Assembly (NCBI RefSeq): GCF_016890225.1 | Contig: NZ_JAFELM010000021.1 | Span: 30,933-54,932 of the forward strand | Direction of reading: 5' to 3' | Length of the DNA stretch: 24,000 nt | Origin: Bacillus suaedaesalsae | GTDB taxonomy: Bacteria > Bacillota > Bacilli > Bacillales > SA4 | Shown here: in pieces, positions 8,509 through 24,000 of the stretch | How the letters are laid out: every line of letters starts with the position of its first letter | How positions within the stretch are numbered: position 1 is the stretch's first letter | Made by a program: the position numbers and the translations under genes | Notes under the pieces: generated by a model | Database searches by the model: none | The model's input: the letters and a program-made list of their open reading frames with translations, nothing else | Told to the model about the DNA's origin: nothing

Positions 8509-8534
8509 ATTTAAAGGAACTAACTAAAATTTAG

Positions 8535-8606
8535 CTGGGCTAGCTGGATTTGAACCAACGCATGTCGCAGTCAAAGTGCGATGCCTTACCGCTTGGCTAT
8601 AGCCCA
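8535..8606 (-). tRNA. tRNA-Gln (anticodon UUG)
   Basis: Reverse complement reads TGGGCTATAGCCAAGCGGTAAGGCATCGCACTTTGACTGCGACATGCGTTGGTTCAAATCCAGCTAGCCCAG. It has a 7-bp acceptor stem, D loop AGCGGTAA, anticodon loop CUUUGAC and a GGTTCAAATCC T-arm. CCA is not encoded. Confidence 0.9.
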
Positions 8607-10299: not shown

Positions 10300-10327
10300 T
10301 GAGAGGTATTTTTGCCTCTCCTTTTTC
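10300..10327 (+). terminator. Rho-independent terminator
   Basis: GAGAGG (10301-10306) / CCTCTC (10315-10320) stem followed by CTTTTTC. Confidence 0.6.
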
Positions 10328-10444
10328 TATATAAAGATATATGACCCTCACCTAATCTAAACTGCTGAAAAAAATCTAAAAAATTTTTATAAATTGATAG
10401 AAGGATTTTTTATGATGACATCGAAATATCTTATTTGAATAATT

Positions 10445-11248
10445 ATGAAAGAAGGTGATACCTTGAGCATGGTAGAAGAGCATGCTGAGAAGTTAGTTCA
10501 AGATGCGTACGAAAGAAGAGCGTCAGATATTCATTTTATCCCCCGGAAAGATGACGGCCACATTAAGTTACGGATCGGAAATGATTTAGTAGAAAAAGAG
10601 AAGGTCCCTAAAGAATTATTCACCAAACTTATCAATCACTTTAAATTTCTTGCTTCGATGGATATCGGAGAAAAGAGAAGACCACAAACAGGCTCTTTGG
10701 TTTTAACAGTTAAGGAAAAGCTCCTTAATCTTCGTCTATCAACCTTACCCACTCCTCATGAAGAAAGTTTAGTCATTCGCGTGCTTCCACAAGAAGAATC
10801 ATTTCCACTGTCAGAGTTATCTCTATTTCCAAACTCAACAAAAACGTTATTGTCATTTATGATGCACTCTCATGGATTAATCATTTTTACCGGGCCGACC
10901 GGGTCAGGTAAAACAACCACAATGTATTCCTTGCTTCAAGCCTCCAATCAACAATTAAGCCGAAATGTTATCACATTAGAAGATCCAATTGAAAAGCATT
11001 CTGATGAACTTTTACAAGTTCAAGTTAATGAAAAAGCAGGAATTACCTACAGCACAGGATTAAAGGCAATTCTAAGACATGATCCAGACATTATTTTGGT
11101 TGGGGAGATTCGTGATGAAGAAACCGCCCAAATTGCAATCAAAGCTGCGATGACAGGACATTTAGTATTAAGTACGATGCACACAAAAGATGCAAAGGGA
11201 GCTATTTACAGACTGTTAGAATGTAATCGTTCACGAAGCATGAGATAA
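10445..11248 (+). pseudogene. comGA: comGA (competence pseudopilus secretion ATPase), 3'-truncated: homology ends near nt 11221
   Basis: Walker A GPTGSGKTT, Asp box ITLEDPIE, Walker B DPDIILVGEIRD and His box TGHLVLSTMHT are all present. After KGAIYRLLE the ORF reads CNRSRSMR and stops (267 aa against ~350-360 aa for full-length ComGA). No comGB-like ORF follows. The likely true start is the ATG at 10469 (SD AAGGTGA at 10452-10458). Confidence 0.8.
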
Positions 11249-11288
11249 ATTCAAAACCTATAAGACAGATTCAAAAGCTATGAGATAA
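11238..11288 (+). repeat. Tandem ~20-bp direct repeat plus reiterated ATGAGAYA motif at the island junction
   Basis: ATTCAAAACCTATAAGACAG (11249-11268) against ATTCAAAAGCTATGAGATAA (11269-11288), 16/20 identical. ATGAGATAA occurs at 11240 and 11280, ATGAGACAA at 11334 and ATGAGATAG at 11449. Confidence 0.55.
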
Positions 11289-11484
11289 TGTTGGATTCGA
11301 TTACTGATTTAATAGGTATTAGAATTCACTAACATGAGACAAATGTATTTGTAATCTTACAAAGCTTTTTCATATCACATTCTAATTTTTTTAAGCTGCA
11401 TCTTTGTTTCATAGACCTTGAAACAAAAGGTGTAAATACTCACTGATGATGAGATAGGATAACATGATTCTAATGCTAAAACTC

Positions 11485-11513
11485 TTACATAATAGTTCCC
11501 CAATATATATAAA
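11485..11513 (+). promoter_or_regulatory. Candidate SigA-type promoter for the HEPN gene
   Basis: TTACAT (11485-11490), 17-nt spacer, TATAAA (11508-11513), ~45 nt upstream of the start. Confidence 0.3.
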
Positions 11514-11558
11514 AATTATAATAATACCCTTATGACAAATTTAATAGGAGAGAAAATT

Positions 11559-11933
11559 ATGATAGTACAAAGTGAAATAGAAACAATGCAAAAAGCCTAC
11601 GGAGAACTGTATGAAGTAGAAAACTTGTTGAGGTTATACATAAAGGAGAAAATGCAACTAACCTACGGTGTTCATTGGTTTTATGTAGCTCCTAGAAAGG
11701 AATATAAACGTCCTCCCAAAAAAGAATTTGAAAAATTACTATTCCACGAATATGAACAAGTTTACCTTAGAGCATATCCCGAAGCTTTTAAAGACCTCAA
11801 TTCGACATTCATTTATCAACTCCACTCCCTTTACCCACTCAGAAATACAATAGCTCATAATCATTATTTAGATAGGGAAGAACTTTCTGATTTATTACTT
11901 TTAAGTAGTAAACTCAAAGATGTGCTTAAATAA
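11559..11933 (+). CDS. Small Swt1-like HEPN-domain protein (putative RNase), 124 aa
   Basis: Start taken at the ATG after SD AGGAG (11546-11550). Rx4H motif LRNTIAHNH at nt 11841-11858. The N-terminal E..LR.YI....L..G..W pattern and overall all-helical layout match the remembered Swt1-type HEPN profile. Confidence 0.6.
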   Translation: MIVQSEIETMQKAYGELYEVENLLRLYIKEKMQLTYGVHWFYVAPRKEYKRPPKKEFEKLLFHEYEQVYLRAYPEAFKDLNSTFIYQLHSLYPLRNTIAHNHYLDREELSDLLLLSSKLKDVLK

Positions 11934-12120
11934 TAAAATAAATGTATTAGTATTCGAAAAAGAGAATTATAATTGATATGAATTTAAAAAGATATGATGG
12001 CTTAATTTATATATTAAAGAACACGCAAAATTAACTTGTGCGTATTAAATGTGTTAAAGAATAAATAAAGATTAAGAAAAAAATACCACAATAAAAAAGA
12101 AAAAGTCGGTAGGTCGTAAA

Positions 12121-12714
12121 ATGATGAAAAACATAATAAATTCAATTTTATCAAAAAATTTAACTGCCAAAGACCTTAAATATATCGAATTAATAATCAA
12201 GGCAGATATCCTAAATACAATAAATAAAAAACATAAGAAAAACGACATAAGGATAATAACACATTTGAATACCAGTGGTAATTTTGGATGTGCGATAATG
12301 GATTTTAATGGAGAAAAACAGTTATTTATTGCTCACAGTAAAGTTCAAAAAGAAAAGGATTGGGAACTAGTAAATGCAATGTTCTCGGAACCATACTTAA
12401 AAGGTGCCATTCGCTGCTATCGGGCGGAAGAGCTAAATCAAAGATATACGACTGAATGGCTAGATGATAATCTCGATAAAGACACATTAACTGCCTATGA
12501 TCGAAACAGGGACACTGAATCTAAAATTTTAGAAGAGGTTGCATCTTATTTAGATAATCAAGGATATAATGAAAGTAAAGATGAAATTAGTTTATATCTA
12601 TACACTGTTAAAGAACCCTGTCCAAGTTGTTCAAAGGTTATTAATACATTCAAAAGTGATTTTAGAGAGATAAATTTAGAGGTTTATTATCAAAATAATT
12701 TAATAAAAAAATAG
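12121..12714 (+). CDS. Deaminase-fold (polymorphic-toxin-type nucleic acid/nucleotide deaminase-like) protein, 197 aa
   Basis: D131-T-E133 followed 32 residues later by P-C167-P-S-C170, which is the [H/C/D]xE-x(24-36)-PCxxC spacing. A preceding beta-hairpin-like NFGCAIMDFNGEKQLFIAHS and the RDTESKILEEVA helix resemble toxin-type deaminases as I remember them. No signal or trafficking domain. Confidence 0.45.
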   Translation: MMKNIINSILSKNLTAKDLKYIELIIKADILNTINKKHKKNDIRIITHLNTSGNFGCAIMDFNGEKQLFIAHSKVQKEKDWELVNAMFSEPYLKGAIRCYRAEELNQRYTTEWLDDNLDKDTLTAYDRNRDTESKILEEVASYLDNQGYNESKDEISLYLYTVKEPCPSCSKVINTFKSDFREINLEVYYQNNLIKK

Positions 12715-12725
12715 GTGGTGAAATA

Positions 12726-13136
12726 ATGAATACAAATGAGTATGATCGGGATTATATAGAAATCATTGAAATGGTACCTATTTTAATGGATGACTTTCTA
12801 TCTGGTGGAGAAACTGTTGCGGAGGCTTCAGGAATGACATTAGTTGAATTAGAGGATTTATTTATAAAAGCAATGCCCTTAAAAATAATTGCTTATATTG
12901 AGTTATTAAACTATCCAAAGTTAAGAGGTAATGCAGAATTAACAACATATTATTTAAATAGGATAATTAATGAGATTGGATCATTTGATTTTTATAATAA
13001 TTTAAATGAAGAAAATCGTAAAAGGTTTGGAAAAAGTCTTTTGGATTTATTAACCATGCCTCAAAAAAAAATAAAAATGAATGAACGAGCTATGGTAAAC
13101 TTTGCACCTATGATTAATGAATCGCTTATTACATAA
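12726..13136 (+). CDS. Immunity-like partner of the deaminase-like protein (136 aa, no recognised domain)
   Basis: Starts 11 nt after the upstream stop with SD AGGTGG. Acidic and helical. The two genes share the terminator at 13120-13148. Confidence 0.4.
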   Translation: MNTNEYDRDYIEIIEMVPILMDDFLSGGETVAEASGMTLVELEDLFIKAMPLKIIAYIELLNYPKLRGNAELTTYYLNRIINEIGSFDFYNNLNEENRKRFGKSLLDLLTMPQKKIKMNERAMVNFAPMINESLIT

Positions 13137-13148
13137 GCGATTTTTTTT
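13120..13148 (+). terminator. Rho-independent terminator overlapping the stop codon
   Basis: AATCGCTTAT (13120-13129), loop TAC, ATAAGCGATT (13133-13142): a perfect 10-bp stem followed by a T-run to 13148. Confidence 0.8.
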
Positions 13149-13313
13149 GACAATTGTAAAATCAATATGATTCCCTTTGTAGTATTAGGTCCCAAATAGG
13201 ATGAGAGTAATTTTATTTTCTACAAGAGTTCTTAATTAAAGAGATTAGACTGTATACATATTAAAAGGGGAATTACTGTCCTTAGACATTAAAACAAGAA
13301 TAGGGTGAAAGAA

Positions 13314-13568
13314 ATGACAGAAAGAAAAGTGCAAGCTACACTAACCATTTCATGCGATATAGTAATAGATGACACAATTAAGAAAAACATTGAGGAATCT
13401 TATTCAAGATCATTGAATGATAAGGAGATAGCTAATAAATTGTTATATGCTTTCTTAAATCCTAAAATCGACTTGTTTAATGAACCAGACCTAGTTGATG
13501 GACAATGGGACATGGTGTGTGAGTTTAAAGGGAGATTCAGTGATTTTAGCCTTGACATTGAAGAGTGA
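13314..13568 (+). CDS. Small acidic hypothetical protein (84 aa from ATG 13314, 87 aa from GTG 13305)
   Basis: SD AGGGTGA (13302-13308) is spaced appropriately for the ATG at 13314. Net acidic, no TM segment and no recognised motif. Confidence 0.5.
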   Translation: MTERKVQATLTISCDIVIDDTIKKNIEESYSRSLNDKEIANKLLYAFLNPKIDLFNEPDLVDGQWDMVCEFKGRFSDFSLDIEE

Positions 13569-13660
13569 AAACTCAATTTACTAAAATTAGTTTTCTAAGT
13601 AAAATTCCCTAATTTTGTGTTATGCTGAAGCATATATAAATATTAAAGGGGAATAATGAC

Positions 13661-14713
13661 TTGACTCAAATCGCTATAAAAAAATTGATTGCTCATGATA
13701 TTGACTTAGATCAAAAAGCACCGACTCCAGCAACAAATGTTATTGACTTGACAACAACATCTCAAGAAGTACTTAACTTCTTTTCAGATCATGTGAAAAC
13801 AGCTCATACAACTAAACAAATAAAAGTATGTCGTTTTTCATATGAAAATGCTCAAGTTCTTTTAGACTCAATAGATATAGCTAAAGATATCAATGACGAT
13901 GATATGTTTGTATCTGCAACAGCTGATATGACGCATAGATTATTTAACATTATGAAAAGTTCTTCTACTAAAAGTTCAGGTGCAATGATTTATCTAGTAT
14001 ACGAAGATTTATCAGATTCTTCCCTTCATTTGGGGATTATGAAAATGGATCCGAATAAAGGAATTCAATACAACAAATCCACTAATTCATTTATCGTCCA
14101 ATCAAATATGCTACCGAATGCAAAAGACCGTCTTCATAAGACTGCTTTTATCAAGTTAAAAGAAGATTTATGGGGTGAGGATGTTCATTTATTTGTGCTG
14201 GATAAGCAGCAAACCAATGAAACAGTATCGAAGTTCTTTTTAATCTCATTCTTAGAAGCAGAAGTAAAAATAAATGATACTCTTGTTACGGAATTGGTAG
14301 AGAAAAAATTAGTGGAGATGGCAAGAACTCAGAAAATCACCCAAACTCCTCTTGATTTGTTGGACTTTAGTACGAAAGTAGATCGGATGTTAACAAGTCA
14401 CAAAGAAATTGACCTTGATTACGAATTGGACAGCCTATTAAAGTCATACATTTCTAGTGATGGAGATAGAGAGTCGAAGATAGAAGAAATTAAACTTGCT
14501 TTAAAAGAAGAGAACGAAGAGGTCTATTTCGAATTTAAAGCAACTAAAAAGCCGTCATATGCAGTATATTCAGACGTTCAAAATCAAATAAATTTTAAAT
14601 TTCCATTGGCTCTAAAAGGGAAGAAGGTTTTTATTAAAACAGAAGAAGTAGATGGACAAACAGTGACGACAATTAGGCTTGAAGGAACAGATTTAGTCGA
14701 AAAATTTAAGTAA
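13661..14713 (+). CDS. NdpA/YejK-like (NA37 family) nucleoid-associated-protein homologue, 350 aa
   Basis: TTG start after SD AAAGGGGA (13646-13653). N-terminus IAIKKLIAHDIDLDQ. Central GAMIYLVYEDL...LHLGIMKMD and HKTAFIKL...LDKQQTNETVSKFFLISFLEAE parallel the remembered YejK pattern (start I.LH.LI; ...ARIDL...FLKGR.G.KV.DFF.DFLGA.E). Confidence 0.5.
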   Translation: MTQIAIKKLIAHDIDLDQKAPTPATNVIDLTTTSQEVLNFFSDHVKTAHTTKQIKVCRFSYENAQVLLDSIDIAKDINDDDMFVSATADMTHRLFNIMKSSSTKSSGAMIYLVYEDLSDSSLHLGIMKMDPNKGIQYNKSTNSFIVQSNMLPNAKDRLHKTAFIKLKEDLWGEDVHLFVLDKQQTNETVSKFFLISFLEAEVKINDTLVTELVEKKLVEMARTQKITQTPLDLLDFSTKVDRMLTSHKEIDLDYELDSLLKSYISSDGDRESKIEEIKLALKEENEEVYFEFKATKKPSYAVYSDVQNQINFKFPLALKGKKVFIKTEEVDGQTVTTIRLEGTDLVEKFK

Positions 14714-16365
14714 TGGAGAATAGTATGAAACATTTAGTTGTCACATTTCAAAACTTAGTAACTGATTTAGACCAGGTGTCAAGTCGATTGGAATGGACTG
14801 AATCACTTCACCTTGTCTCTGTAACATATAGAGACAAGGTAGGATCATTTATTCATGTAATAAAAAATCCAACATACTTAGCTGAAATTAACAACACCCA
14901 TATAAGTGTAGAAGTAAAAATTGGTACAAATATACTCTATGATCAGCAATTTATTGATAAGTATGAAATGAAGATACTTGAGGACGATCAGGTAGCTGAA
15001 GTTACCATTAGCTTCAACAAAGAAATTAGCTTACAGCTACATTCAAATGTAACGTTATTCTTTAACATAGACTCATTTCTCTCAGAGTGGAGTTTCAATA
15101 ATTTAAGTATGGTTACATTCTTTAAGAATATAGATAAAGAAAAACAGGTATTCATTTACTTGCCTACTGACGAGAAAATAGAGAATCCCTTTTTGAAAGT
15201 AATCCCTTTTAAGGATTACAATGGATTTGAACCGAATGCCTTAGAACAAAATCAAAAGGATTTAATTGATGATAGTATAAAAATAAGGGAGGAACATACA
15301 CGTATATCGACAAGTATGCCTGTTCCTTATTATTTTTATTTTGAATCAAGCAAATTAAAATTCCCTGAAAACCTTTACTTATCTTTTCAGCAAAGTCTAT
15401 TTTTCTTATCATTACTCCATATAAGTAACAAATATGAAAATGAAGTTTTTATTGTTAGGGGTCAAAAAAGTGTGGAGTATAATTGGCAAAAAGATTTTAA
15501 ACCGAACTTTGCAGATATTTTATATAGTATTTTCAATTTCTGTTATGGTAAGGAACAGGCACAAGATAAACTGGAAATCGGTAGGAATATACTAACTACT
15601 TATCATCTTGATGAATCAATAGATAAATTAGACGCTCAGTTAGATAAAATTGAGAAAACAATTAATCGACATTTCTCACTTTATGTGAATGATAAAATAA
15701 AGAAGTTTTTAGATGAATCAAAAAAGGCAATAGATGAAGCTCATAAATATGCAAAAGAAACCAGAGAAGCCGCAGATAAGGTAGTCTCTAATATTAACAC
15801 TTCGATCATTGGATTAATTACAGCTGTTTTCTCAGGTATTGTTATTATGGCTAGAGGAAACAAGTGGTTTTTAATCGTAGCACTCTTACTACATATGTTT
15901 TATTTTGGATTAACATATTTTCTTAACCGTTATTTCGCTAAAAAGAAGCAAAAAGAAATTCTTGATGTGTATGACCAATCTATTGGATATATATCCAATG
16001 TCACTGAAGAAGAAAAGGTAGAAATAAAACAAATGTATATTGATTCTGCTTCAGAGAGTATCGATAACAATTTGAAAATCTATAAATGGCTCTCAAATTC
16101 ATTGGTTGTCTTAATGCTATTGCTAAGTATTGTTGTTTTCTTTTTTATGCCTAATTTGGATAGTGCTAAAAAACAATCAGAGCAACAAAATATAAAACAA
16201 GAACAGATAAATAAAGGTACTTCACCGAGTAATAATGAAGACAAAGTTCAAAATACCTCAGAAAAATCGAAACAGTCACAGGACCAAGCTGAAAAAAATA
16301 ACTCTAAGGTGAATCCCACTAATAGTAATACAGACTCGAACAAAAACTTGGATAATAAAAAGTAG
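14713..16365 (+). CDS. Large coiled-coil / 3-TM membrane protein with a Q/N/K/S-rich C-terminal tail, translationally coupled to the NdpA-like gene
   Basis: The ATG overlaps the upstream TAA (TAATG at 14711-14715). An alternative in-frame ATG lies at 14725 after GGAGA. About 370 aa are soluble with no recognised domain. A coiled-coil segment (DKLDAQLDKIEKTI...EAHKYAKETREAADKV) follows, then TM helices IIGLITAVFSGIVIMA, WFLIVALLLHMFYFGLTYFL and LVVLMLLLSIVVFFFM, then a ~75-aa low-complexity tail. Confidence 0.7.
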   Translation: MENSMKHLVVTFQNLVTDLDQVSSRLEWTESLHLVSVTYRDKVGSFIHVIKNPTYLAEINNTHISVEVKIGTNILYDQQFIDKYEMKILEDDQVAEVTISFNKEISLQLHSNVTLFFNIDSFLSEWSFNNLSMVTFFKNIDKEKQVFIYLPTDEKIENPFLKVIPFKDYNGFEPNALEQNQKDLIDDSIKIREEHTRISTSMPVPYYFYFESSKLKFPENLYLSFQQSLFFLSLLHISNKYENEVFIVRGQKSVEYNWQKDFKPNFADILYSIFNFCYGKEQAQDKLEIGRNILTTYHLDESIDKLDAQLDKIEKTINRHFSLYVNDKIKKFLDESKKAIDEAHKYAKETREAADKVVSNINTSIIGLITAVFSGIVIMARGNKWFLIVALLLHMFYFGLTYFLNRYFAKKKQKEILDVYDQSIGYISNVTEEEKVEIKQMYIDSASESIDNNLKIYKWLSNSLVVLMLLLSIVVFFFMPNLDSAKKQSEQQNIKQEQINKGTSPSNNEDKVQNTSEKSKQSQDQAEKNNSKVNPTNSNTDSNKNLDNKK

Positions 16366-16405
16366 GTCTATAATATGTTGTTTAACATTATAATCTACTA
16401 CAACT

Positions 16406-16453
16406 AAAAACCAGAAAGGAATCATTCATTACTAATGATTCCTTTCTGGTTTT
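16406..16453. terminator. Strong bidirectional terminator shared by convergent genes
   Basis: AAACCAGAAAGGAATCATT (16408-16426), loop CATTACT, AATGATTCCTTTCTGGTTT (16434-16452): a perfect 19-bp stem flanked by A- and T-runs. Confidence 0.9.
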
Positions 16454-16480
16454 ATATATTACTTGTAAACCGTCGACTAT

Positions 16481-16993
16481 TTATTTCAAAATGGAATTGT
16501 ATAGTGATCCCTTCCTCTTAGACCATTCGTAAATATAGTTTTTTAATTCCTCGACTCTTTGATCAGCATTAATCTTTCCATTTCTCTTACCAACTAATGA
16601 ATCCATTTTTAAAAACTCATGTATTAAATTTTCAGAATCGGGATACTCATAGCTATCGTTATATCCTGGATTAAGCCAATGCAAGTAAATAAAGTAATTG
16701 TTCTTTTGAAAATATCTTAGGGTGTTTAATGCATCTTTCTTAAATTGTATAGAACATAAAACGATTTCTGGAAGGTAGTCAACTTGTATTATCTCTTCTA
16801 CTGTTTTTCCCCGTTCTTGTGGAGAACCATTGATTAAAAATACGTCAGTGAACTCTCCATTAGGACCTACTTCTAATTTTCTTTCTGACCTTTGAGCTGT
16901 TCTTATATTCTTATCGTTAAAAAGTTTCTTCCATGTTTCCGACTTCCCAGAATTTCGATGACCAATTACTGCAATAAGTAATTTTTTTGTCAT
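16481..16993 (-). CDS. Small P-loop NTPase (170 aa), family not recognised
   Basis: SD GGAGG upstream. Walker A GHRNSGKS near the N-terminus (nt 16943-16966). A hydrophobic strand VFLINGSPQE is a possible Walker B. Confidence 0.6.
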   Translation of the reverse strand: MTKKLLIAVIGHRNSGKSETWKKLFNDKNIRTAQRSERKLEVGPNGEFTDVFLINGSPQERGKTVEEIIQVDYLPEIVLCSIQFKKDALNTLRYFQKNNYFIYLHWLNPGYNDSYEYPDSENLIHEFLKMDSLVGKRNGKINADQRVEELKNYIYEWSKRKGSLYNSILK

Positions 16994-17187
16994 AGTTTTA
17001 CCTCCATTATCTTACTGTTATGGTTAACATATTCTAAAAGAAGGTAAATAGAACTATTCTTTATATCAAGAATAATACTTGTACTGATCAAAGCCAGATA
17101 GTTTATTTTATGTGGGTACTATTCTAGAGTACATACTTTTTTACTTTTATTGGGAAAATAGTTTCATGTTTGAAAGGAGGATTTTTA

Positions 17188-17646
17188 ATGAGAAATTTCA
17201 CTTCGGCATTTACTCTTGCTGTATTACTAATATCAGCACCACATTTCACAAAGGCAAATTCAATGAAAGAACCCGTTGTACTTGAATCTGGTGAATGGAC
17301 ACTGACACTTGGTAATCCTGAAGTAACAGAGGAGGAACATTTGGCAAAAGGGAATAAAAATGCAGTTGTTTACTCATTAGGAATTACTAATAAATCTGGA
17401 CAAAAATATAATGTGAGAGTCCATACATTTAGAAAGGAACAAGGGAAGTCCTATGATTTCGGAATGTCTTTACATGAGACTGAAGGAATAGATATGGGTA
17501 CCGCTTCGGAACAAGGGAATGAAATTAAACATGTAAATTTCCCTGTGGGTAAAAAGACAAAAGAATTTGAAGTATTAATTACATGGCAGGATAAAGAAGA
17601 ATTCGGCAGGTTCTATAAACAGGAATTTATTGTTCCAGTAAAATAA
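17188..17646 (+). CDS. Secreted small protein (152 aa)
   Basis: SD AAAGGAGG (17173-17180) precedes the ATG at 17188. Signal peptide MRNFTSAFTLAVLLISAPHFTKA-NS. Confidence 0.65.
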   Translation: MRNFTSAFTLAVLLISAPHFTKANSMKEPVVLESGEWTLTLGNPEVTEEEHLAKGNKNAVVYSLGITNKSGQKYNVRVHTFRKEQGKSYDFGMSLHETEGIDMGTASEQGNEIKHVNFPVGKKTKEFEVLITWQDKEEFGRFYKQEFIVPVK

Positions 17647-17829
17647 TAACATTATTTATGGTTGTATATGAGATGTTGTGGAATTGAGGCAACTCTTTCT
17701 TTAAATAAATGGGAGTTTTTAGTATAAGAACAGAAGTTGTTGTTCAACTCCCTCCTTAATTGAAGTTAACAAGCAGGTAGTTTAGCTGAGTAGGAAGGAT
17801 ATATTGTTATTAATATTAGAAAAGTATTG

Positions 17830-17857
17830 AGAACGTCAAAGATGACGTTCTTTTTTA
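17830..17857 (+). terminator. Rho-independent terminator ~185 nt downstream of the nearest + strand stop
   Basis: AGAACGTCA (17830-17838), loop AAGA, TGACGTTCT (17843-17851), then T6. Confidence 0.7.
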
Positions 17858-18017
17858 TTGGCTGTTTTCGTAATGATTGTTGCTTTTTATTTATCCTGAA
17901 AGATTGTAGTATAAAAGAATAACAATTTATAATAGGAGATTTAAAAATCAAATTTTAAAGAAAGTTATGAAACCTTTTGATTTTATATCCGTAAAGTTAT
18001 ATAGGAGAGGTGATGTT

Positions 18018-18533
18018 TTGAAAAAGTTTTACGTACCGTTTATGTTAATCTTTATCTTGTTTGGTTGCTCAACCAAGACTACGGAACCAAGTAACACAGA
18101 AGGTTTATCATTAGAAAACCAAATCACCAATGTTATGTCAGAAAATAATTTAAGCAATAAAGAAATTATTGATTATGATATTAAGGATAACTTCATCTAC
18201 GTAATTTTCGAAAATAGACAAGGAGATAACAGTTATCCAGATTTAGCTATTCTAAAGAATAACAATGGAAAATTAGTATGGGAAGCAGGTCCAGACGACC
18301 GAACTCAGTCAATAAGTGATGCTATGGTCTTTGGAAGGGATGAAGGTTCTACTGTAACATTACTTTTACCAAACCAAGAGAACATAAAAAGCATTAAAGT
18401 CTTAGGGGAATATGCAAAAGCTGTAACTTACGTTGAGGAAGTTACTGATGATTTTTATATGAAACATATGTATTGGATTGCATATACGAATGAAGAACCA
18501 ACACACGAGGATATTGAAATCATAATGGAATAA
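18018..18533 (+). CDS. Lipoprotein (171 aa)
   Basis: SD AGGAGAGG (18003-18010) precedes the in-frame TTG at 18018. Signal peptide MKKFYVPFMLIFILFGC-S carries the lipobox LFGC. Confidence 0.65.
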   Translation: MKKFYVPFMLIFILFGCSTKTTEPSNTEGLSLENQITNVMSENNLSNKEIIDYDIKDNFIYVIFENRQGDNSYPDLAILKNNNGKLVWEAGPDDRTQSISDAMVFGRDEGSTVTLLLPNQENIKSIKVLGEYAKAVTYVEEVTDDFYMKHMYWIAYTNEEPTHEDIEIIME

Positions 18534-18539
18534 ATGATT

Positions 18540-18570
18540 AACGCTTGGGTATAAACCCAAACGTTTTTTT
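18540..18570 (+). terminator. Rho-independent terminator
   Basis: AACGCTTGGGT / ACCCAAACGTT stem (10 of 11 bp) with loop ATAA, followed by T7. Confidence 0.75.
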
Positions 18571-18821
18571 ATGCACTTCTAAACATCTCGACAGTAGCAT
18601 AATTTGACTTATGGTCAGCTTGAAATAAAAGTTACTTCACTCGCTCCTTGTGAGCCAACTCGTTTCGATTTTGTGCGACTCCACCACGTTTACGAACTTC
18701 TCGGTAATCTTCGATTAGTAATTTACTACATCTCCATCAGTATTCAATATTTTAATATCATATGTATCAATACTTGATACTGAATCTAATTCATTAGATT
18801 GTAAGATTTCAATAACTTCTT

Positions 18822-19337
18822 TCACAACCATCTTAGCTGCCTTAGTTGCTTCTTACCTGAATCTTTTATTGATGTTTGGATGGAAATAGTCTTTTGTGGA
18901 TACTCGGTATGTATATCTCCAACACCTTCGTATTCTTTAAGTCCTTCCATTAAAGTTGATGTTAATAGTGAAAGTTCCTTGTTAATTTCTTCACTATTTT
19001 GCGAAGATAAATCTATTCCTTCAACAACAATATTATAATCTTTTATTGAGGATGAGTTAATAATTCTTGTTGTGGTTGTCTTTATATCATTTTTCACGGT
19101 GTTAATATAATCTGCATTCCCATTTATTTGTATCACTAACTCATTCTTATGTGTTGTTTTTACAAACACACCCTCATATTTGTCATCTAACCTATCAGTC
19201 AAAGATTCCAATAAAGATAAATCCTTCCCTATCTTCGAATCATTAGCTTTTTTGGCTTCAAAAGGATTAGTTAAGATGCTAAATGATAATGTTCCTACTA
19301 CTATAATTCCAACAATGATTATAATCACTTTTTTCAT
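18822..19337 (-). CDS. N-terminally membrane-anchored protein (171 aa), possibly frameshifted near its 3' end
   Basis: SD AGGAGGG. TM anchor MKKVIIIIVGIIVVGTLSFSIL. A second frame continues (EATKAAKMVVKEVIEILQSNELDSVSSIDTYDIKILNTDGDVVNY) to a stop at 18715-18717. Confidence 0.55.
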   Translation of the reverse strand: MKKVIIIIVGIIVVGTLSFSILTNPFEAKKANDSKIGKDLSLLESLTDRLDDKYEGVFVKTTHKNELVIQINGNADYINTVKNDIKTTTTRIINSSSIKDYNIVVEGIDLSSQNSEEINKELSLLTSTLMEGLKEYEGVGDIHTEYPQKTISIQTSIKDSGKKQLRQLRWL

Positions 19338-19534
19338 AAGATCCCTCCTGATATGAGGGTATGTACTATTTTCTAAATAATGTCATAAAAGTCTTTACTG
19401 ATTAGAAGAAAATAGACATTTGATCATAAAATGGACTTTCCCTTTTATAGGGATGTTATTAATGTGAAATTCGAAATTAGTCTGGATTAAGTTTTAATAA
19501 ATATATGTTATATTGTGACAAACTCATCTTCTTA

Positions 19535-19726
19535 TCAAACCTGAATACTAGTATGATTTTTCGACTTAATCTGGTTATAAAAAAGTATATATGATAGGCA
19601 AATAACGAGTGGGAAATTCAATTGTTTTCCTGCAACTAACAACTCGATTTTAAACATATGGGTTAGGAAAATTAACAGATGGTTCATAACTAAGCTAAGT
19701 GAGAAGGTATATATAAAGTTATTCAT
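19535..19726 (-). CDS. 63-aa hydrophobic peptide, start overlapping the stop of the upstream gene
   Basis: ATGAATAA overlap (19719-19726). AAGGAGGTGA lies inside the 3' end of the upstream gene, 8 nt before this ATG. Two hydrophobic segments: FIYTFSLSLVMNHLLIFLTHMF and FPLVICLSYILFY. Confidence 0.45.
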   Translation of the reverse strand: MNNFIYTFSLSLVMNHLLIFLTHMFKIELLVAGKQLNFPLVICLSYILFYNQIKSKNHTSIQV

Positions 19727-20702
19727 ATTTTATCTCACCTCCTTTTAGCTCCTCGTCTAAGGACTGAAGTACAATAGGAAGAGCCATATGCAATGTTTCT
19801 TTGTCACCGATGTTCTCACTCAAACTAAGTAACTGGTTCAAAAATTTAACCAACAGTCGGTTCACTAGCAAGAGAATAATTAGGAATTTTAATAAATTTG
19901 GATCAACTAGAGGATTGCCCAGTCCAGCATTTTTAAACATTAATATAAAAGGAGTAATAAACTTGTCAATAAAAACTGAATTGACTTGATTTTCCTTAAA
20001 GTATTCGATATACCAGCCTATAAACTTAAATACTCTTTGAACTTCTGATAATTCTTCTTTGGTAATTCTATTAATTTGATAACCCCAGTTACTGACATCC
20101 ATCCATTCTTGTGTAGAGTCTTTATTTGTTATTGATCCAGGTGATGTGTATCCTAACTGATCCAAAAAAATTTTGCTGGTCTCTTCATCTAGTTGTCCAT
20201 TTGAAAAAATTTCATTAATCACATTTAGGACTGTAAATAATTTTTCCTGTTCTTGTCTCCTCAATTTCATTTTTCTTTCTAACTCTTTTTTACTTGGTCT
20301 TCCAGAATTCAGAACTGGAAGATTTTTCTCGGCTACTTCTCCGACAACCCATTCTTTTTTACTATTATCTTCAATCACTTCTAATAAATGATTAAAATTT
20401 ACAATCATATCTTCTACATAATCAACCAATGATAACTTTAGTTTTTTAATATCTACTAAATACCCTTTTGAAAATAGGAACTGGATAAGATCTTTATCGT
20501 ATATTCCATTACTTTTTAAATTCGTTATCTCTAATATTACGTCTAATGAATTTAAAGGATAGCACGCTTTAACACCTTTTCCTTTTCCTTCACTGCTTCT
20601 TTCAGAGGATAATAGTCCGTTTTGTACATATCTTCTAAATTGGCTATCTGTTAAATGAATATTATTCTTTTCCGCCTCAATAAATATTTCTTCCCTTTTC
20701 AT
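19719..20702 (-). CDS. Hypothetical protein with an N-terminal MerR/YhbD-like HTH-type domain (327 aa)
   Basis: Start taken at the ATG (track M9) after SD AAGGAG. N-terminus REEIFIEAEKNNIHLTDSQFRRYVQNGLLSSERSSEGKGKGVKACYPLNSLDVILEI fits the remembered MerR-like winged-helix pattern. The rest is helical and unrecognised. Confidence 0.55.
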   Translation of the reverse strand: MKREEIFIEAEKNNIHLTDSQFRRYVQNGLLSSERSSEGKGKGVKACYPLNSLDVILEITNLKSNGIYDKDLIQFLFSKGYLVDIKKLKLSLVDYVEDMIVNFNHLLEVIEDNSKKEWVVGEVAEKNLPVLNSGRPSKKELERKMKLRRQEQEKLFTVLNVINEIFSNGQLDEETSKIFLDQLGYTSPGSITNKDSTQEWMDVSNWGYQINRITKEELSEVQRVFKFIGWYIEYFKENQVNSVFIDKFITPFILMFKNAGLGNPLVDPNLLKFLIILLLVNRLLVKFLNQLLSLSENIGDKETLHMALPIVLQSLDEELKGGEIKYE

Positions 20703-20944
20703 AAAGTCACACTCCTTATAATCCAATTCTAAGTGAGATTAATAGATGAAAACAACATGATGAGAATGCGCAAATGAAAATAAATTATAATAGACCTAGA
20801 ATTAATATCTTTATAATAAATAGAAGGAGTTAAGAAATGATTTCTAGAAGTAAGAGCTGTTAAAGTTTAAAGATGTGTGAAGTGGAAGAATGATAGCAAT
20901 TAATCAGTAAGGTCATGCAAAGATAGTTAAGGGGAAATGGAACA

Positions 20945-21322
20945 ATGTTAGATAATAAAATACAAAAAGATGATATAGTGCATTTTTTAGACCTAGTAAA
21001 TTCAAGTTATAGTCCTAATTTTAAGTTAGGGCACTCAAAAATTGGAAAGCCGAAGCCATATTATAAAATATTAAAAGAAGAATACGTAGATAGTCTTGAA
21101 TATCAAAGTTTTATAAAAGTCTATTTATTTTCAAGACATGTTTTAAATGAGCAAGAATTGTATGTATTAAATCATACATATGGGGTATCAGGTGAGTTCT
21201 ACAAGGGGACTCAAATTGCAAAAATGTTAAACTTATCAAATACACGTATAAGAGCTGTGAGGGTTAAAGGTGAACAAAAAATAAGCACATTTTTAAGGAA
21301 GCAGCTTAATAAAGTTCATTGA
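20945..21322 (+). CDS. Small protein with a sigma-70 region-4-like HTH only (125 aa)
   Basis: SD AAGGGGA. The C-terminal LNEQELYVLNHTYGVSGEFYKGTQIAKMLNLSNTRIRAVRVKGEQKISTFLRKQL matches the region 4.2 pattern. No region 2. Confidence 0.5.
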   Translation: MLDNKIQKDDIVHFLDLVNSSYSPNFKLGHSKIGKPKPYYKILKEEYVDSLEYQSFIKVYLFSRHVLNEQELYVLNHTYGVSGEFYKGTQIAKMLNLSNTRIRAVRVKGEQKISTFLRKQLNKVH

Positions 21323-21388
21323 ATTGATGAATCTTTATCTTAAATGTTTAAAATGTTGAATGCACAAAAGTAAATCATAGAAAACAAA

Positions 21389-21415
21389 GGGACCACATTG
21401 TGGTCCTATTTCTTG
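21389..21415 (+). terminator. Probable terminator
   Basis: GGACCAC / GTGGTCC stem at 21390-21406 followed by a T-rich stretch (TATTTCTT). Confidence 0.45.
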
Positions 21416-21520
21416 TGATTCCACCAATAAAATTATGAATTCTTATAAAATTTTAAAAAACTTTACAAATTATTAAGCCAAATTAGAAACTTTATTGTCT
21501 AATGTATGGAAGCATAAATA

Positions 21521-21646
21521 GTGGATGGGGGAAATGACATTATTAAACTAGTTAAAAAAGCGCAAAAGGGTGATGACATAGCATTCTTGAAGCTTTTAGA
21601 AAAGTACGAGTTCGTAATAGATACAAAGTATTTGATTCCGACTTAA
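21521..21646 (+). pseudogene. Remnant of an ECF/sigma-70-family sigma factor N-terminus (41 codons)
   Basis: GTG-initiated MDGGNDIIKLVKKAQKGDDIAFLKLLEKYE is the typical start of group-4 sigma factors (AQ.GD..AF..L...Y). It then diverges and stops. Regions 2 and 4 are absent. Confidence 0.45.
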
Positions 21647-21762
21647 AAGTAAAGCTAATTAAATATGAACAACTTGGAAGGGAATAGGGTAGCTGACAAA
21701 TCTCTTAGTATTATTTTCTTTATAAAGAGCCAATGAAGAATCGAGTATCTTCATTTAGTAGT

Positions 21763-21795
21763 AGCAGGTCACATTTATAAGTGAACTGCTTTTTC
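21763..21795 (+). terminator. Hairpin plus T-run (plus-strand terminator with no intact gene upstream)
   Basis: AGCAGGTCAC (21763-21772) / GTGAACTGCT (21781-21790), 9 of 10 bp, followed by T5. Confidence 0.5.
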
Positions 21796-21812
21796 ACTTT
21801 TTAGAGGAGATA

Positions 21813-22127
21813 CTATTCTTCATTCATTCTGCTTACCAAGAGTGTGATTCTATCAGTTCGGCTAAACATATTAATAAAAATGAAGTTAACACATTCAATA
21901 GCTTTAATAAATTTAAAGTGGATCGGTGTATCATCAAAAATGCAGTTTCTCTGGAGACATAATCCATTGCACGAAACATTCATATCCCATAAAAAGTAGG
22001 CTGAATAATAACCCCTCTCAGACAGCATGACTCCTATTCCTTCCTTAAATTCAACTATCTTTGTCCCTCCAATACTAAGGGACTCGACCTCTCTCAAGTA
22101 ATCTAAAAAACGTTCTTCTATATTACT
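21813..22127 (-). CDS. Hypothetical protein (104 aa)
   Basis: Start taken at the ATG (track M32) after SD AGGAGG. No recognised motif. Confidence 0.5.
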   Translation of the reverse strand, partial: SNIEERFLDYLREVESLSIGGTKIVEFKEGIGVMLSERGYYSAYFLWDMNVSCNGLCLQRNCIFDDTPIHFKFIKAIECVNFIFINMFSRTDRITLLVSRMNEE

Positions 22128-22202
22128 CATGCTACAAATACCTCCTAAAAACCTGAGTATCTTCATATTAGTCCAGAAACGGTAAAAATATTCACCATTA
22201 TT

Positions 22203-22230
22203 AAAAAAATATTTTATCAAAATGAATAAT
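22203..22230. repeat. 28-nt direct repeat, copy 1
   Basis: AAAAAAATATTTTATCAAAATGAATAAT. 25 of 28 identical to copy 2 at 22289-22316. Confidence 0.7.
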
Positions 22231-22239
22231 TAATAATAA

Positions 22240-22272
22240 AAAGAGACCCTCAAATTAAGATTGTAGGGTCCT
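22240..22272 (-). terminator. Probable terminator of the XRE gene
   Basis: GACCCT / AGGGTC stem. On the minus strand it is followed by TCTTTTT. Confidence 0.4.
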
Positions 22273-22288
22273 TTCTTTCATTTCTATC

Positions 22289-22316
22289 AAAAAAACATTT
22301 TATTAAAATGAATAAG
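22289..22316. repeat. 28-nt direct repeat, copy 2
   Basis: AAAAAAACATTTTATTAAAATGAATAAG. On the minus strand it contains the CATTTT/AAAATG mini-hairpin followed by T7. Confidence 0.7.
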
Positions 22317-22343
22317 ATATGAAAATCGCGTCTAAACAGTATA

Positions 22344-22697
22344 TCAAGACTTCTGGTTATTTTTATCAAAGAGGTCAGCGCCTTTTTCCACAAGTGAAAG
22401 AAGATATTCGGATTGGTCGGGATTTTCTTTATTTATCTTTCTAAGGAGGTGGTTAATGTGAAGGAGTCTTAACTCAAACTCGTCATCATCTTTTATAACT
22501 TTCATTGTCTCTAGACTAAATAGAGCAAACTCATCTTGCAGTTGTTGTAACAATGAAAGTTGTATGGTTTCACTCTTTCCAGTTTCAAGGTTACTTAGAT
22601 AACCAGCTGAGACTCCTAATTTATTTGCTAAATCGTGTAAACTGTATCCACATTTCTTTCGAAGAGTTCTAACTTTTTGTCCTATATCAGTTATCAT
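22344..22697 (-). CDS. XRE-family helix-turn-helix transcriptional regulator (117 aa)
   Basis: HTH_3 pattern IGQKVRTLRKKCGYSLHDLANKLGVSAGYLSNLETGK. The SD GAGGTGA favours the ATG at 22697 over the GTG at 22706. Confidence 0.8.
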   Translation of the reverse strand: MITDIGQKVRTLRKKCGYSLHDLANKLGVSAGYLSNLETGKSETIQLSLLQQLQDEFALFSLETMKVIKDDDEFELRLLHINHLLRKINKENPDQSEYLLSLVEKGADLFDKNNQKS

Positions 22698-22821
22698 GTC
22701 GTTCACCTCGTGGCTAGATTAGTATGATGTTTTATCTAGTTGTCTTTCTAATTTCATTATAACAAGAGGTAAAAAGATTTGGTGGAAAATTTTGAAAAAA
22801 ATAAAGGGGTTATGTTTCTAG

Positions 22822-24000
22822 ATGACAAGTACATGGGTTAAGAATTCATGTTTGGATTATATGAAAGAGAAAAACAAGATTATTTATTATGCAAAACAGT
22901 TTGATATGGATCCTCTTATGATGAAAATAATCTTCGACCGAGGGCATAAAGACTGGTACCAAATTAACAAATTTTTAAATGCTGAGCCTAGTGACCTAAT
23001 AGGACCATTCTATTTAAATGACATGAAAAAAGCGATTGAAAGAATTAATCTTGCCCTTCAAAAGGAAGAAAAGATGATGATATTTGGGGACTATGATACG
23101 GATGGGATAACATCTACTTCTCTTTTATATAAAGCTCTTAGGCTTTTAAAAGGAAGTGTTGATTATTATATTCCTAAAAGGGTAGATGGATATGGTTTGT
23201 CAGTAGCGGCAGTTGAGAAATTTTTTGAGAAGGATATTTCATTAATAATCACAGTTGATAATGGATCATCAGCTCATGAAGCCATTAAACGAGCGAAAGA
23301 GTTGGGGATGGAGGTCATTGTTACTGATCATCATGAAATTTTAAGAGGGAATCCCATTTGTTCAGCTTTTGTCAATCCAAAACAGAGTGGCGAAAGATTT
23401 CCTTTTTCATATCTAGCAGGTGCAGGAGTTGCTTTTAAATTGGTTCATGCGCTTTTACTTGAAAGAGGGATGTGGGAAAAGAAATGTTGGGATTTTGTTG
23501 AACTTGCAGCAATTGGAACAATAGGCGATGTCATGCCTCTTCAAGATGAAAACAGAAGGATAGTACAACTTGGATTGGAGAAGATGAACAGGGCACCTTC
23601 TCCAGCGTTAAGAGTCTTATTCAAGCTATTAAGGAAAGAGGAAATCACATCAACAAATATAGCATTTTCAGTTGTACCCATTATTAACGCGGTCGGAAGA
23701 TTAAGTGATCCCAATTTTATGGTAAGAGTGTTTACAGGTGAAGGTAAGGACGAACAGATTGAGGAATGTTGGAAGAAGCTAATTCGTCTAAATAATATGA
23801 GAAAAGATTTACTTCACCAACAAGTCATGCAAGCAGAATTGTTAATTCAATTGAATGCGTTGGATAAGCAGGAAGTCATTGTAGTTGCTGGAGACTTTCA
23901 TGAAGGTTTAATAGGATTAATTGCTTCAAGAATCACTGACAAATATAAAAAACCAAGTATTGTGTTTAACTCTCGTGGAAAAGGTTCGGCAAGAAGTGTA
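22822..24000 (+). CDS. RecJ-like DHH/DHHA1 single-strand-specific exonuclease paralogue (C-terminus beyond the window). Not in the supplied ORF track.
   Basis: My translation from the ATG at 22822 is open to nt 24000 (393 codons). RecJ motifs in order: IFGDYDTDGITS, YIPKRVDGYG, ITVDNG, VTDHHE, LAGAGVAFKL, LAAIGTIGDVMPL, NAVGRL and GSARSV. The start is uncertain (the SD AAAGGGG lies 11 nt upstream). Confidence 0.8.
   Translation, partial: MTSTWVKNSCLDYMKEKNKIIYYAKQFDMDPLMMKIIFDRGHKDWYQINKFLNAEPSDLIGPFYLNDMKKAIERINLALQKEEKMMIFGDYDTDGITSTSLLYKALRLLKGSVDYYIPKRVDGYGLSVAAVEKFFEKDISLIITVDNGSSAHEAIKRAKELGMEVIVTDHHEILRGNPICSAFVNPKQSGERFPFSYLAGAGVAFKLVHALLLERGMWEKKCWDFVELAAIGTIGDVMPLQDENRRIVQLGLEKMNRAPSPALRVLFKLLRKEEITSTNIAFSVVPIINAVGRLSDPNFMVRVFTGEGKDEQIEECWKKLIRLNNMRKDLLHQQVMQAELLIQLNALDKQEVIVVAGDFHEGLIGLIASRITDKYKKPSIVFNSRGKGSARSV

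Follow-up and report, generated by a model that had tools for sequence, protein, structure and literature searches.

A gene island splits comGA of Bacillus suaedaesalsae after codon 253 and may be a Tn7-like targeted transposon

Mobile elements that target competence genes are well documented, and a review table of them lists comGA only for SpST71A (PMC12378983), a 44-kb prophage with an integrase that lies in comGA of Staphylococcus pseudintermedius ST71 and splits it 509/479 bp (Brooks et al. 2020, PMC7029219). Tn7-like elements insert at TnsD/TniQ-directed sites, such as that of Tn7 at glmS and that of Tn6022/AbaR in comM of Acinetobacter baumannii (PMC11014353, PMC10293859, PMC8649781), and defence-like cargo has been reported for them (PMC8649781). 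An element that blocks DNA uptake escapes deletion by transformation, which is known as the anti-curing logic (PMC4774983, PMC12378983). Here we describe a stretch of 24,000 nucleotides (nt) of Bacillus suaedaesalsae RD4P76 (contig NZ_JAFELM010000021.1, forward-strand positions 30,933 to 54,932; hereafter the window), in which an island of ~25 genes divides the competence ATPase gene comGA cleanly after codon 253. Full-text searches of the open-access literature did not turn up comGA as an attachment site, either in Bacillus or for Tn7-like elements.

The window contains an open reading frame (ORF) that encodes 267 amino acids (aa), or 261 aa from the GenBank start, a TTG codon at 10463 (P0001, MBM6617273.1, 100% identical).

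10445..11248, plus strand: truncated comGA; real comGA up to 11221, followed by 8 foreign codons and a stop in 11222-11248

The ORF matches Pfam T2SSE (PF00437) with an E-value of 2e-87, over profile positions 5-257 of 370 only, and scores 336.9 bits against the NCBIfam ComGA equivalog NF041000 (cut-off 300). An earlier reading of the window, made from the sequence alone, had reported the four ATPase motifs, and all of them were located: the Walker A motif GPTGSGKT at residues 150-157, the Asp box ITLEDPIE at 176-183, the Walker B motif DPDIILVGEIRD at 213-224 and the His box TGHLVLSTMH at 237-246. It had also described 8 unrelated codons after KGAIYRLLE, and the foreign tail is indeed exactly CNRSRSMR before the stop; the genuine comGA portion is the first 253 codons counted from the annotated start. 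The last 98 residues of ComGA, including the conserved AQRL helix and the four-cysteine motif, have no counterpart in the truncated protein. According to an alignment to Vibrio cholerae EpsE (PDB 1p9r), the cut falls within the conserved ATPase core.

Both DNA and protein homology to the intact comGA of near relatives stop at 11221-11227, and we placed the break at 11221/11222. The relatives aligned were Bacillus sp. BGMRC 2118 (L043), with a ComGA of 351 aa and 85% nt and 91% aa identity, and a Logan assembly (L001) with a ComGA of 349 aa. The G+C content falls at the break, from 0.340 upstream to 0.303 in 11222-22800 (Mann-Whitney p 3e-4). The proposed interruption of comGA by foreign DNA at about 11221 is thus borne out, and so is the claim that no comGB-like gene follows: the relatives' ComGA C-terminus, ComGB-GG, AroK, YqzE, YqhG, YqhH and GcvT gave no significant tblastn match in the remaining 12.8 kb of the window.

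The rest of comGA is present in the genome. Used as a protein query, the last 98 aa of ComGA from BGMRC 2118 identified the lost part as a separate 94-aa ORF (P0177, MBM6617299.1, MQEIEQTLVAVAAQRLL...SLEGWNI; 82% identical to the query), in which the AQRL helix and the four cysteines of a ComGA of ~350 aa reside. The next accession after this C-fragment, MBM6617300.1, is the full-length ComGB of RD4P76. We took the gene order from the GenBank protein accessions, which run consecutively along the contig (contigs of equal size, 192,996 bp); six island proteins of the window appear among them in positional order (MBM6617275, 276, 278, 280, 283 and 285). Because 26 accession steps separate the truncated gene, MBM6617273, from the C-fragment and 27 separate it from ComGB, about 25 genes are inserted, and the order on the contig is the comGA 5' part, 25 protein genes, the comGA 3' part and comGB. 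The pieces add up to the size of the BGMRC 2118 orthologue (253 + 4 + 94 = 351 aa), with four unannotated codons, F-D/N-I-S, between them. Decay is not evident in either half, as the split gene carries no excess changes at conserved positions relative to intact orthologues, and the ratio of nonsynonymous to synonymous substitution rates (dN/dS) of the 5' half against BGMRC 2118 is 0.024. The two closest sequenced relatives are without the element, which was therefore not seen outside RD4P76. In a comparison of RefSeq with GenBank numbering (WP_204202654-677 and MBM6617275-299), the offset changes by one within MBM6617286-298, which implies that one unseen island protein either bears an older WP number that another genome also uses or has been removed from RefSeq.

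The insertion had been set against the alternative that the rest of comG was lost by a deletion or rearrangement and that the foreign DNA only abuts a dead gene stump. The lack of comG sequence downstream within the window agrees with such a loss, but the ComGA C-fragment and the full-length ComGB stand consecutively and in the expected order on a contig of equal size, which refutes a deletion at the level of annotation order and leaves it next to no probability. It is also very improbable that the 267-aa form is a functional short ComGA or that the break is an assembly or sequencing artefact. PGAP named the product as a normal protein and the NCBIfam cut-off is passed, but the cut-off is passed because the model spans just 267 positions. 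Against a short form, 117 of the 120 closest ComGA cluster representatives have 346-385 aa, the remaining three being cut at this same residue. In addition, the lost part comprises conserved ATPase core and the Cys4 motif and exists as a separate ORF, and the identical break is found in independent assemblies.

The three cut representatives, those of RD4P76, P0004 (L044) and P0020 (L045/L046), all end in ...AIYRLL(E). Two other lineages thus carry related elements at this codon of comGA, oriented as in the window, and one of the two is also found with an empty site. L044, a JGI contig of 14.8 kb, has the upstream gene order of the window. The empty site is on L054, a contig of 555 kb from a sample sibling to that of L045, where comGA and comGB are intact; L045 and L054 share 99.745% identity over 3,916 nt, and because this identity ends exactly at the junction, occupied and empty alleles coexist in near-identical strains. 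The other junction of the element in L044, hereafter the sister element, lies on L063, which reads element right end, comGA 3' part, comGB-GG, aroK, yqzE, yqhG, yqhH and gcvT; L062 carries that region too, but begins 19 nt past the junction. Across the three lineages, the insertions share one orientation and their breakpoints are no more than 3 nt apart. A metagenome scan with an alignment of the ComGA C-terminus returned 13 loci, all with an intact comGA or a comGA cut by the contig end, and no further right junction. Viral contigs were also scanned with the C-terminus alignment, an end-sequence pattern and the HEPN, RecJ-like, NA37 and PIN_8 proteins, and gave no match. The left arm of the sister element also contains, just before a HEPN-gene remnant, an in-frame 25-residue fragment (L044:11154-11234) that we take to resemble DNA gyrase subunit A; it is either a captured piece of a housekeeping gene or a sign of chimeric assembly.

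Other elements break comGA at a different position. A 52-kb predicted prophage (L047:8738-10820; IMG/VR UViG 2791354918_000002) has the gene of a 511-aa large serine recombinase at its end; a comGA 3' part follows after 3 nt, its first codons being those of Walker A (IYITRPTGSGKTT), and marks a second and different integration site. In a Logan assembly (L061:1480-2133), the comGA 3' part begins ...ITKPTGSGKTT after small helix-turn-helix (HTH) and zinc-ribbon genes, and a partner N-terminal fragment of the same 90% cluster (P0184) ends LTGPTG, followed by NVI, at the same Walker A site as in L047 but in another organism. Because L047 and L061/P0184 break at Walker A and not at codon 253, comGA is a target with several sites. 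Two further ComGA fragments from ENA metagenomes, P0181 and P0182, end at the His box, after AALTGHLV and AALTG, respectively, and could mark a third insertion site or simple frameshifts.

The ends of the element at codon 253 were compared among the window, L045, L044, L063 and an island of Bacillus sp. DJP31 (L002). The left end in the window has the following parts.

11217..11221, plus strand: TAGAA, the last 5 bases of comGA; predicted 5-bp target-site duplication by analogy with GGAAT of the sister element
11222..11238, plus strand: element terminus TGTAATCGTTCACGAAG, colinear with the L045 terminus TGTAATCCTTCACAAAA and the DJP31 island terminus TGTCATGATTCACGAAG
11240..11288, plus strand: three 20-bp-phased subterminal repeats, ATGAGATAA, ATAAGACAG and ATGAGATAA, at +20, +40 and +60 from the terminus; putative transposase-binding sites
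11335..11456, plus strand: two further repeat copies, TGAGACA at 11335 and TGAGATA at 11450

Four of the nine TGAGAYA copies in the window fall within 216 bp (Poisson p ~1e-6). The L045 end has the same layout (TGTAATCCTTCAC..., with TGAGAYA at +20, +41 and +61), and the L044 end has a motif of its own, TTGGCG, GTGGCA and TTGGCA at +19, +39 and +59, of which the same heptamers occur inverted in the L063 end. Repeats at about +20, +40 and +60 are thus found in four ends, those of the window, L045, L044 and DJP31, and all six element ends begin with TGT. Both junctions can be read in the sister element. With a slash marking the joint, its attL (L044) is ...CTACTGGAAT/TGTTGCGTTCCAAC..., that is, ...CTGGAAT/TGTTGCGT, and its attR (L063) is ...GTGTGACACGCAACA/GGAATTTAATGTATCGATG..., that is, ACGCAACA/GGAATTTAAT. 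The sister element therefore has perfect 8-bp terminal inverted repeats, TGTTGCGT and ACGCAACA, of the form TGT...ACA, flanked by the 5-bp direct repeat GGAAT, and when the element and one repeat copy are taken out, comGA reads LLEFNVSM in frame. To judge from these sequences, both of its ends carry several repeats that are inverted between the ends, as in Tn7-like elements, whose TGT...ACA terminal inverted repeats are matched by the six TGT ends and by the ACA end read in the sister element. An inverted copy of any terminus was not found in the loci examined.

The joints with comGA differ in position: the gene ends at TTAG in L045, at TTAGAA in the window and at CTGGAAT in L044. Although the termini of the window and of L045 are nearly identical, their joints are 2 nt apart, and L044 is shifted by 1 nt more, giving an overall spread of 0-3 nt. 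A secondary 2-bp deletion is an unlikely cause because the L045/L054 alignment is gap-free over 3.9 kb. Given near-identical termini joined 2 nt apart, the ends do not show a fixed crossover core common to attB and attP.

The island of DJP31 adds a relative in a neighbouring gene. In this strain comGA and comGB are intact and homology to comGC is lost after about codon 33, at ...CCTAA/TGTTGGTGAAAAATA. The breakpoint is followed by the phased repeats GGGAACTAGAGAATAAAG and TTGGAAACTAGATAATAAAG, which presumably resemble the end repeats of Tn7. The window-type end recurs about 170 nt further on, colinear with window 11222-11290, and another 1.3 kb on is a stretch of 203 nt with 88% identity to the L044 end, likewise starting with TGTTGCGTTCCAAC. 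The foreign DNA (L002:11045-21017) thus contains three stacked TGT-type ends, at 11125, 11301 and 12664, and comGD-GG were not found within 10 kb after the comGC break. The island encodes a KAP NTPase and a TniQ-domain protein (gene from 19295 onwards, >574 aa; PF06527, 48.9 bits, cut-off 27) whose C-terminal part gives a weak HTH_17 match, below the threshold, near residues 410-437; its predicted architecture is that of the target selectors of the Tn7 TnsD type. The DNA ahead of the intact comGA of DJP31 (L002:2946-7988) contains merR/merA together with a split homologue, 28.6% identical, of the window ORF 19719-20726, indicating that the region upstream of comG is also variable.

From these comparisons, we lean towards the view that the island is a Tn7-like targeted transposon, guided by a target selector and loaded with defence and toxin cargo. 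Targeted transposition is favoured over an integrase because the TGT...ACA termini abut a putative 5-bp duplication, phased repeats lie in both ends and the orientation is strict, and further because the insertion points wander by a few nt, ends are stacked at one locus, the cargo is of the defence type (HEPN, PIN_8, KAP NTPase and deaminase toxin) and a TniQ gene is associated. In the proposed mechanism, a DDE transposase, an AAA+ regulator and a target selector of the TniQ/TnsD type would drive the island; the selector would bind a conserved stretch of comGA, leading to insertion at a fixed distance and in one orientation, and the insertion would create a 5-bp target duplication. The transposition genes are predicted among the right-hand ~10 genes beyond the window (MBM6617289-298), and the right end of the window's element would be an inverted TGTAATCG terminus, reading ...CGATTACA and then TAGAATTT(A/G)AT, that is, the TAGAA duplication. 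The visible left part would be cargo and comprise the HEPN gene, the genes of a deaminase toxin and of the protein that likely confers immunity to it, an NA37-like gene, an XRE regulator and a RecJ-like exonuclease. More broadly, and as a tentative proposal that we judge slightly short of probable, these islands could form a Bacillaceae family of protein-guided Tn7-like transposons that home to the competence-pilus operon, with codon 253 of comGA as the main target and relatives stacked in comGC, and that disable DNA uptake as an anti-curing strategy paralleling AbaR/Tn6022 in comM, though in Gram-positive hosts and at an attachment site that the literature search did not find described.

Several observations weigh against a Tn7-like transposon. 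No TnsA, TnsB, TnsC or TniQ is encoded in the visible 12.8 kb of the island (11222-24000), and by analogy with Tn7 the closely packed end should bear the transposition genes, but here it bears cargo. No tnsABC directly precedes the TniQ gene of DJP31, which may be part of another, nested element. The 5-bp duplication is read only in the sister element, pieced together from two sibling metagenomes (L044 and L063), and an integrase att core would likewise present a 5-bp direct repeat flanked by inverted repeats. Finally, two intact comGA halves with a low dN/dS in the 5' half and an intact comGB also fit a gene that is still used after excision. The alternative is an integrase-type element with a tyrosine or serine recombinase. 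By leaving precisely, such an element would make comGA whole again, and competence could then be coupled to its loss; we regard this alternative as unlikely though far from negligible. It would explain the clean split of the gene with both halves undecayed and the empty and occupied alleles in near-identical strains; the 5-nt core is a centre of dyad symmetry in the attP reconstructed for the sister element, the repeated arm motifs could be Int or Xis sites, and the large serine recombinase prophage of L047 does use comGA, although at another site. However, the visible 12.8 kb contains no recombinase, the insertion of nearly identical window and L045 termini 2 nt apart is what a fixed crossover core should forbid, and the TGT...ACA termini directly abut the 5-bp repeat. 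The TniQ gene of the related DJP31 island also speaks against it, and the nearest relatives lack the element, unlike the case of developmentally fixed intervening elements. The 5-nt shared core and inverted repeats were at first read as an integrase att site, and this was dropped after the 2-3-nt shifts of the insertion point, the TGT termini and the TniQ gene. An excisable regulatory switch of the skin, SPbeta or Listeria comK phage type, which the sequence-only reading had considered, is accordingly not supported by the Tn7-type ends, the 0-3 nt variation and a visible part without recombinase; a reversible switch is possible if the unseen end encodes one.

The visible part of the island contains the following features.

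11222..24000, no strand: left 12.8 kb of the inserted island, 15 of ~25 inserted genes, G+C below the flank, continuing past the window end
11532..11933, plus strand: first cargo gene, weak Swt1-like HEPN match; C-terminal 56 aa 50% identical to the remnant at the equivalent position in L044
12121..13136, plus strand: toxin-deaminase gene (BURPS668_1122 family, E 2.5e-23) and DUF3969 gene
13661..16365, plus strand: gene like that of the NA37 nucleoid-associated protein and overlapping gene of a 550-aa membrane protein, cargo
19719..21322, both strands: 335-aa ORF (minus) without family match and with the split homologue in DJP31, and 125-aa sigma-70 region 4-like protein (plus)
22344..22706, minus strand: XRE-type HTH regulator, divergent from the adjacent RecJ-like gene
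22822..24000, plus strand: gene of a second RecJ-like DHH exonuclease, borne by the island and truncated at the window end; its visible 393 aa score 371.8 bits against TIGR00644

The DUF3969 gene is likely the immunity partner of a stand-alone deaminase toxin, the pair being carried as cargo. On the plus strand, the first terminator-like site past the junction is found at 13119-13143, so that transcripts started at the comG promoter may extend into the first cargo genes. PADLOC gave weak HEPN and HTH matches only. A prophage was considered and rejected: among PHROGs, a match with a named function and a strong E-value was limited to the RecJ-like gene, the visible island had no DNA match to 50,697 phage records and shows no structural, packaging or lysis genes, and ~25 genes are too few for a phage.

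Upstream of the break, the window has the conserved yqg-comG neighbourhood of Bacillus, comprising an ltaS-like gene, a yqgT-like gene, yqgU, a gene of the metallo-beta-lactamase fold, a methyltransferase gene of the Methyltransf_28 family, a DUF2626 gene, a Spx/MgsR-like ArsC gene, tRNA-Gln and the gene of a 516-aa membrane protein before comGA, the first gene of comGA-GG, and this order is identical to that in L043 and L044. The tRNA-Gln(UUG), at 8534-8606 on the minus strand between the mgsR-like gene and the gene of the 516-aa membrane protein, is 87-99% identical across distant Bacillaceae loci. A promoter-like site lies before comGA, and a perfect ComK box (AAAAN5TTTT) was not found in 10300-10445.

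10415..10443, plus strand: promoter-like site ATGACA-17-AATAAT, directly 5' of comGA, a consensus match only

Because the truncated ComGA lacks its last 98 residues and the entire island stands between comGB-GG and the comG promoter, RD4P76 should be non-transformable. Since Tn7-type elements do not reseal their target precisely, the insertion would be a durable knock-out, and the island probably shuts off natural transformation for good rather than reversibly, which would protect the element from removal by transformation. The locus adds a precise and recurrent attachment site in comGA to the competence genes targeted by mobile elements; among the known elements of this kind, its site and host family are new and its element class is probably different. 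It also offers a testable case of transformation in conflict with genomic parasites among spore-forming bacilli of soil and saline habitats. Should the Tn7-like reading be true, the element would have in its TniQ protein a new natural module for DNA targeting, directed at a defined target of 30-50 bp. The two comGA halves are annotated as 'type II/IV secretion system protein' and 'hypothetical protein' and not as a split gene. The annotation is corrected here, since a strain whose halves are named as ordinary proteins would be wrongly scored as having or lacking the comG operon.

Compared with the described systems, the locus resembles SpST71A in that a mobile element halves comGA, comGB-GG are left behind and loss of transformation is predicted. 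It differs from SpST71A in that the RD4P76 island has ~25 genes and no visible phage structural genes, lies after codon 253 of 351, belongs to another host family and has transposon-like ends. The comK prophage of Listeria (active lysogeny), skin in sigK and SPbeta in spsM of B. subtilis likewise split a host gene and keep both halves intact, but these systems use serine recombinases with precise, host-controlled excision, and the end anatomy in RD4P76 argues against a fixed crossover core. With the streptococcal prophages in comYC/comGC and the anti-curing model (Croucher et al. 2016, PMC4774983), the island shares the prospect of an element that inactivates uptake and cannot be deleted by incoming DNA, and the DJP31 relative is hit in comGC; element type and host differ, and in RD4P76 the link to transformation is drawn from sequence. 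Tn7 itself inserts downstream of glmS and leaves the gene undisrupted. In contrast to other Tn7-like elements, transposition genes are not seen in the visible part of the RD4P76 island, TniQ occurs only in the related DJP31 island, and codon 253 of comGA in Bacillaceae was not found among the attachment sites reported for Tn7-like elements in the open-access literature. With these elements, the island nevertheless shares a site- and orientation-specific insertion in a conserved gene, TGT...ACA termini, a putative 5-bp duplication (in the sister element), phased subterminal repeats, a variable cargo rich in defence genes and ends stacked at one locus, and comM, the target of Tn6022/AbaR, is a competence gene as well.

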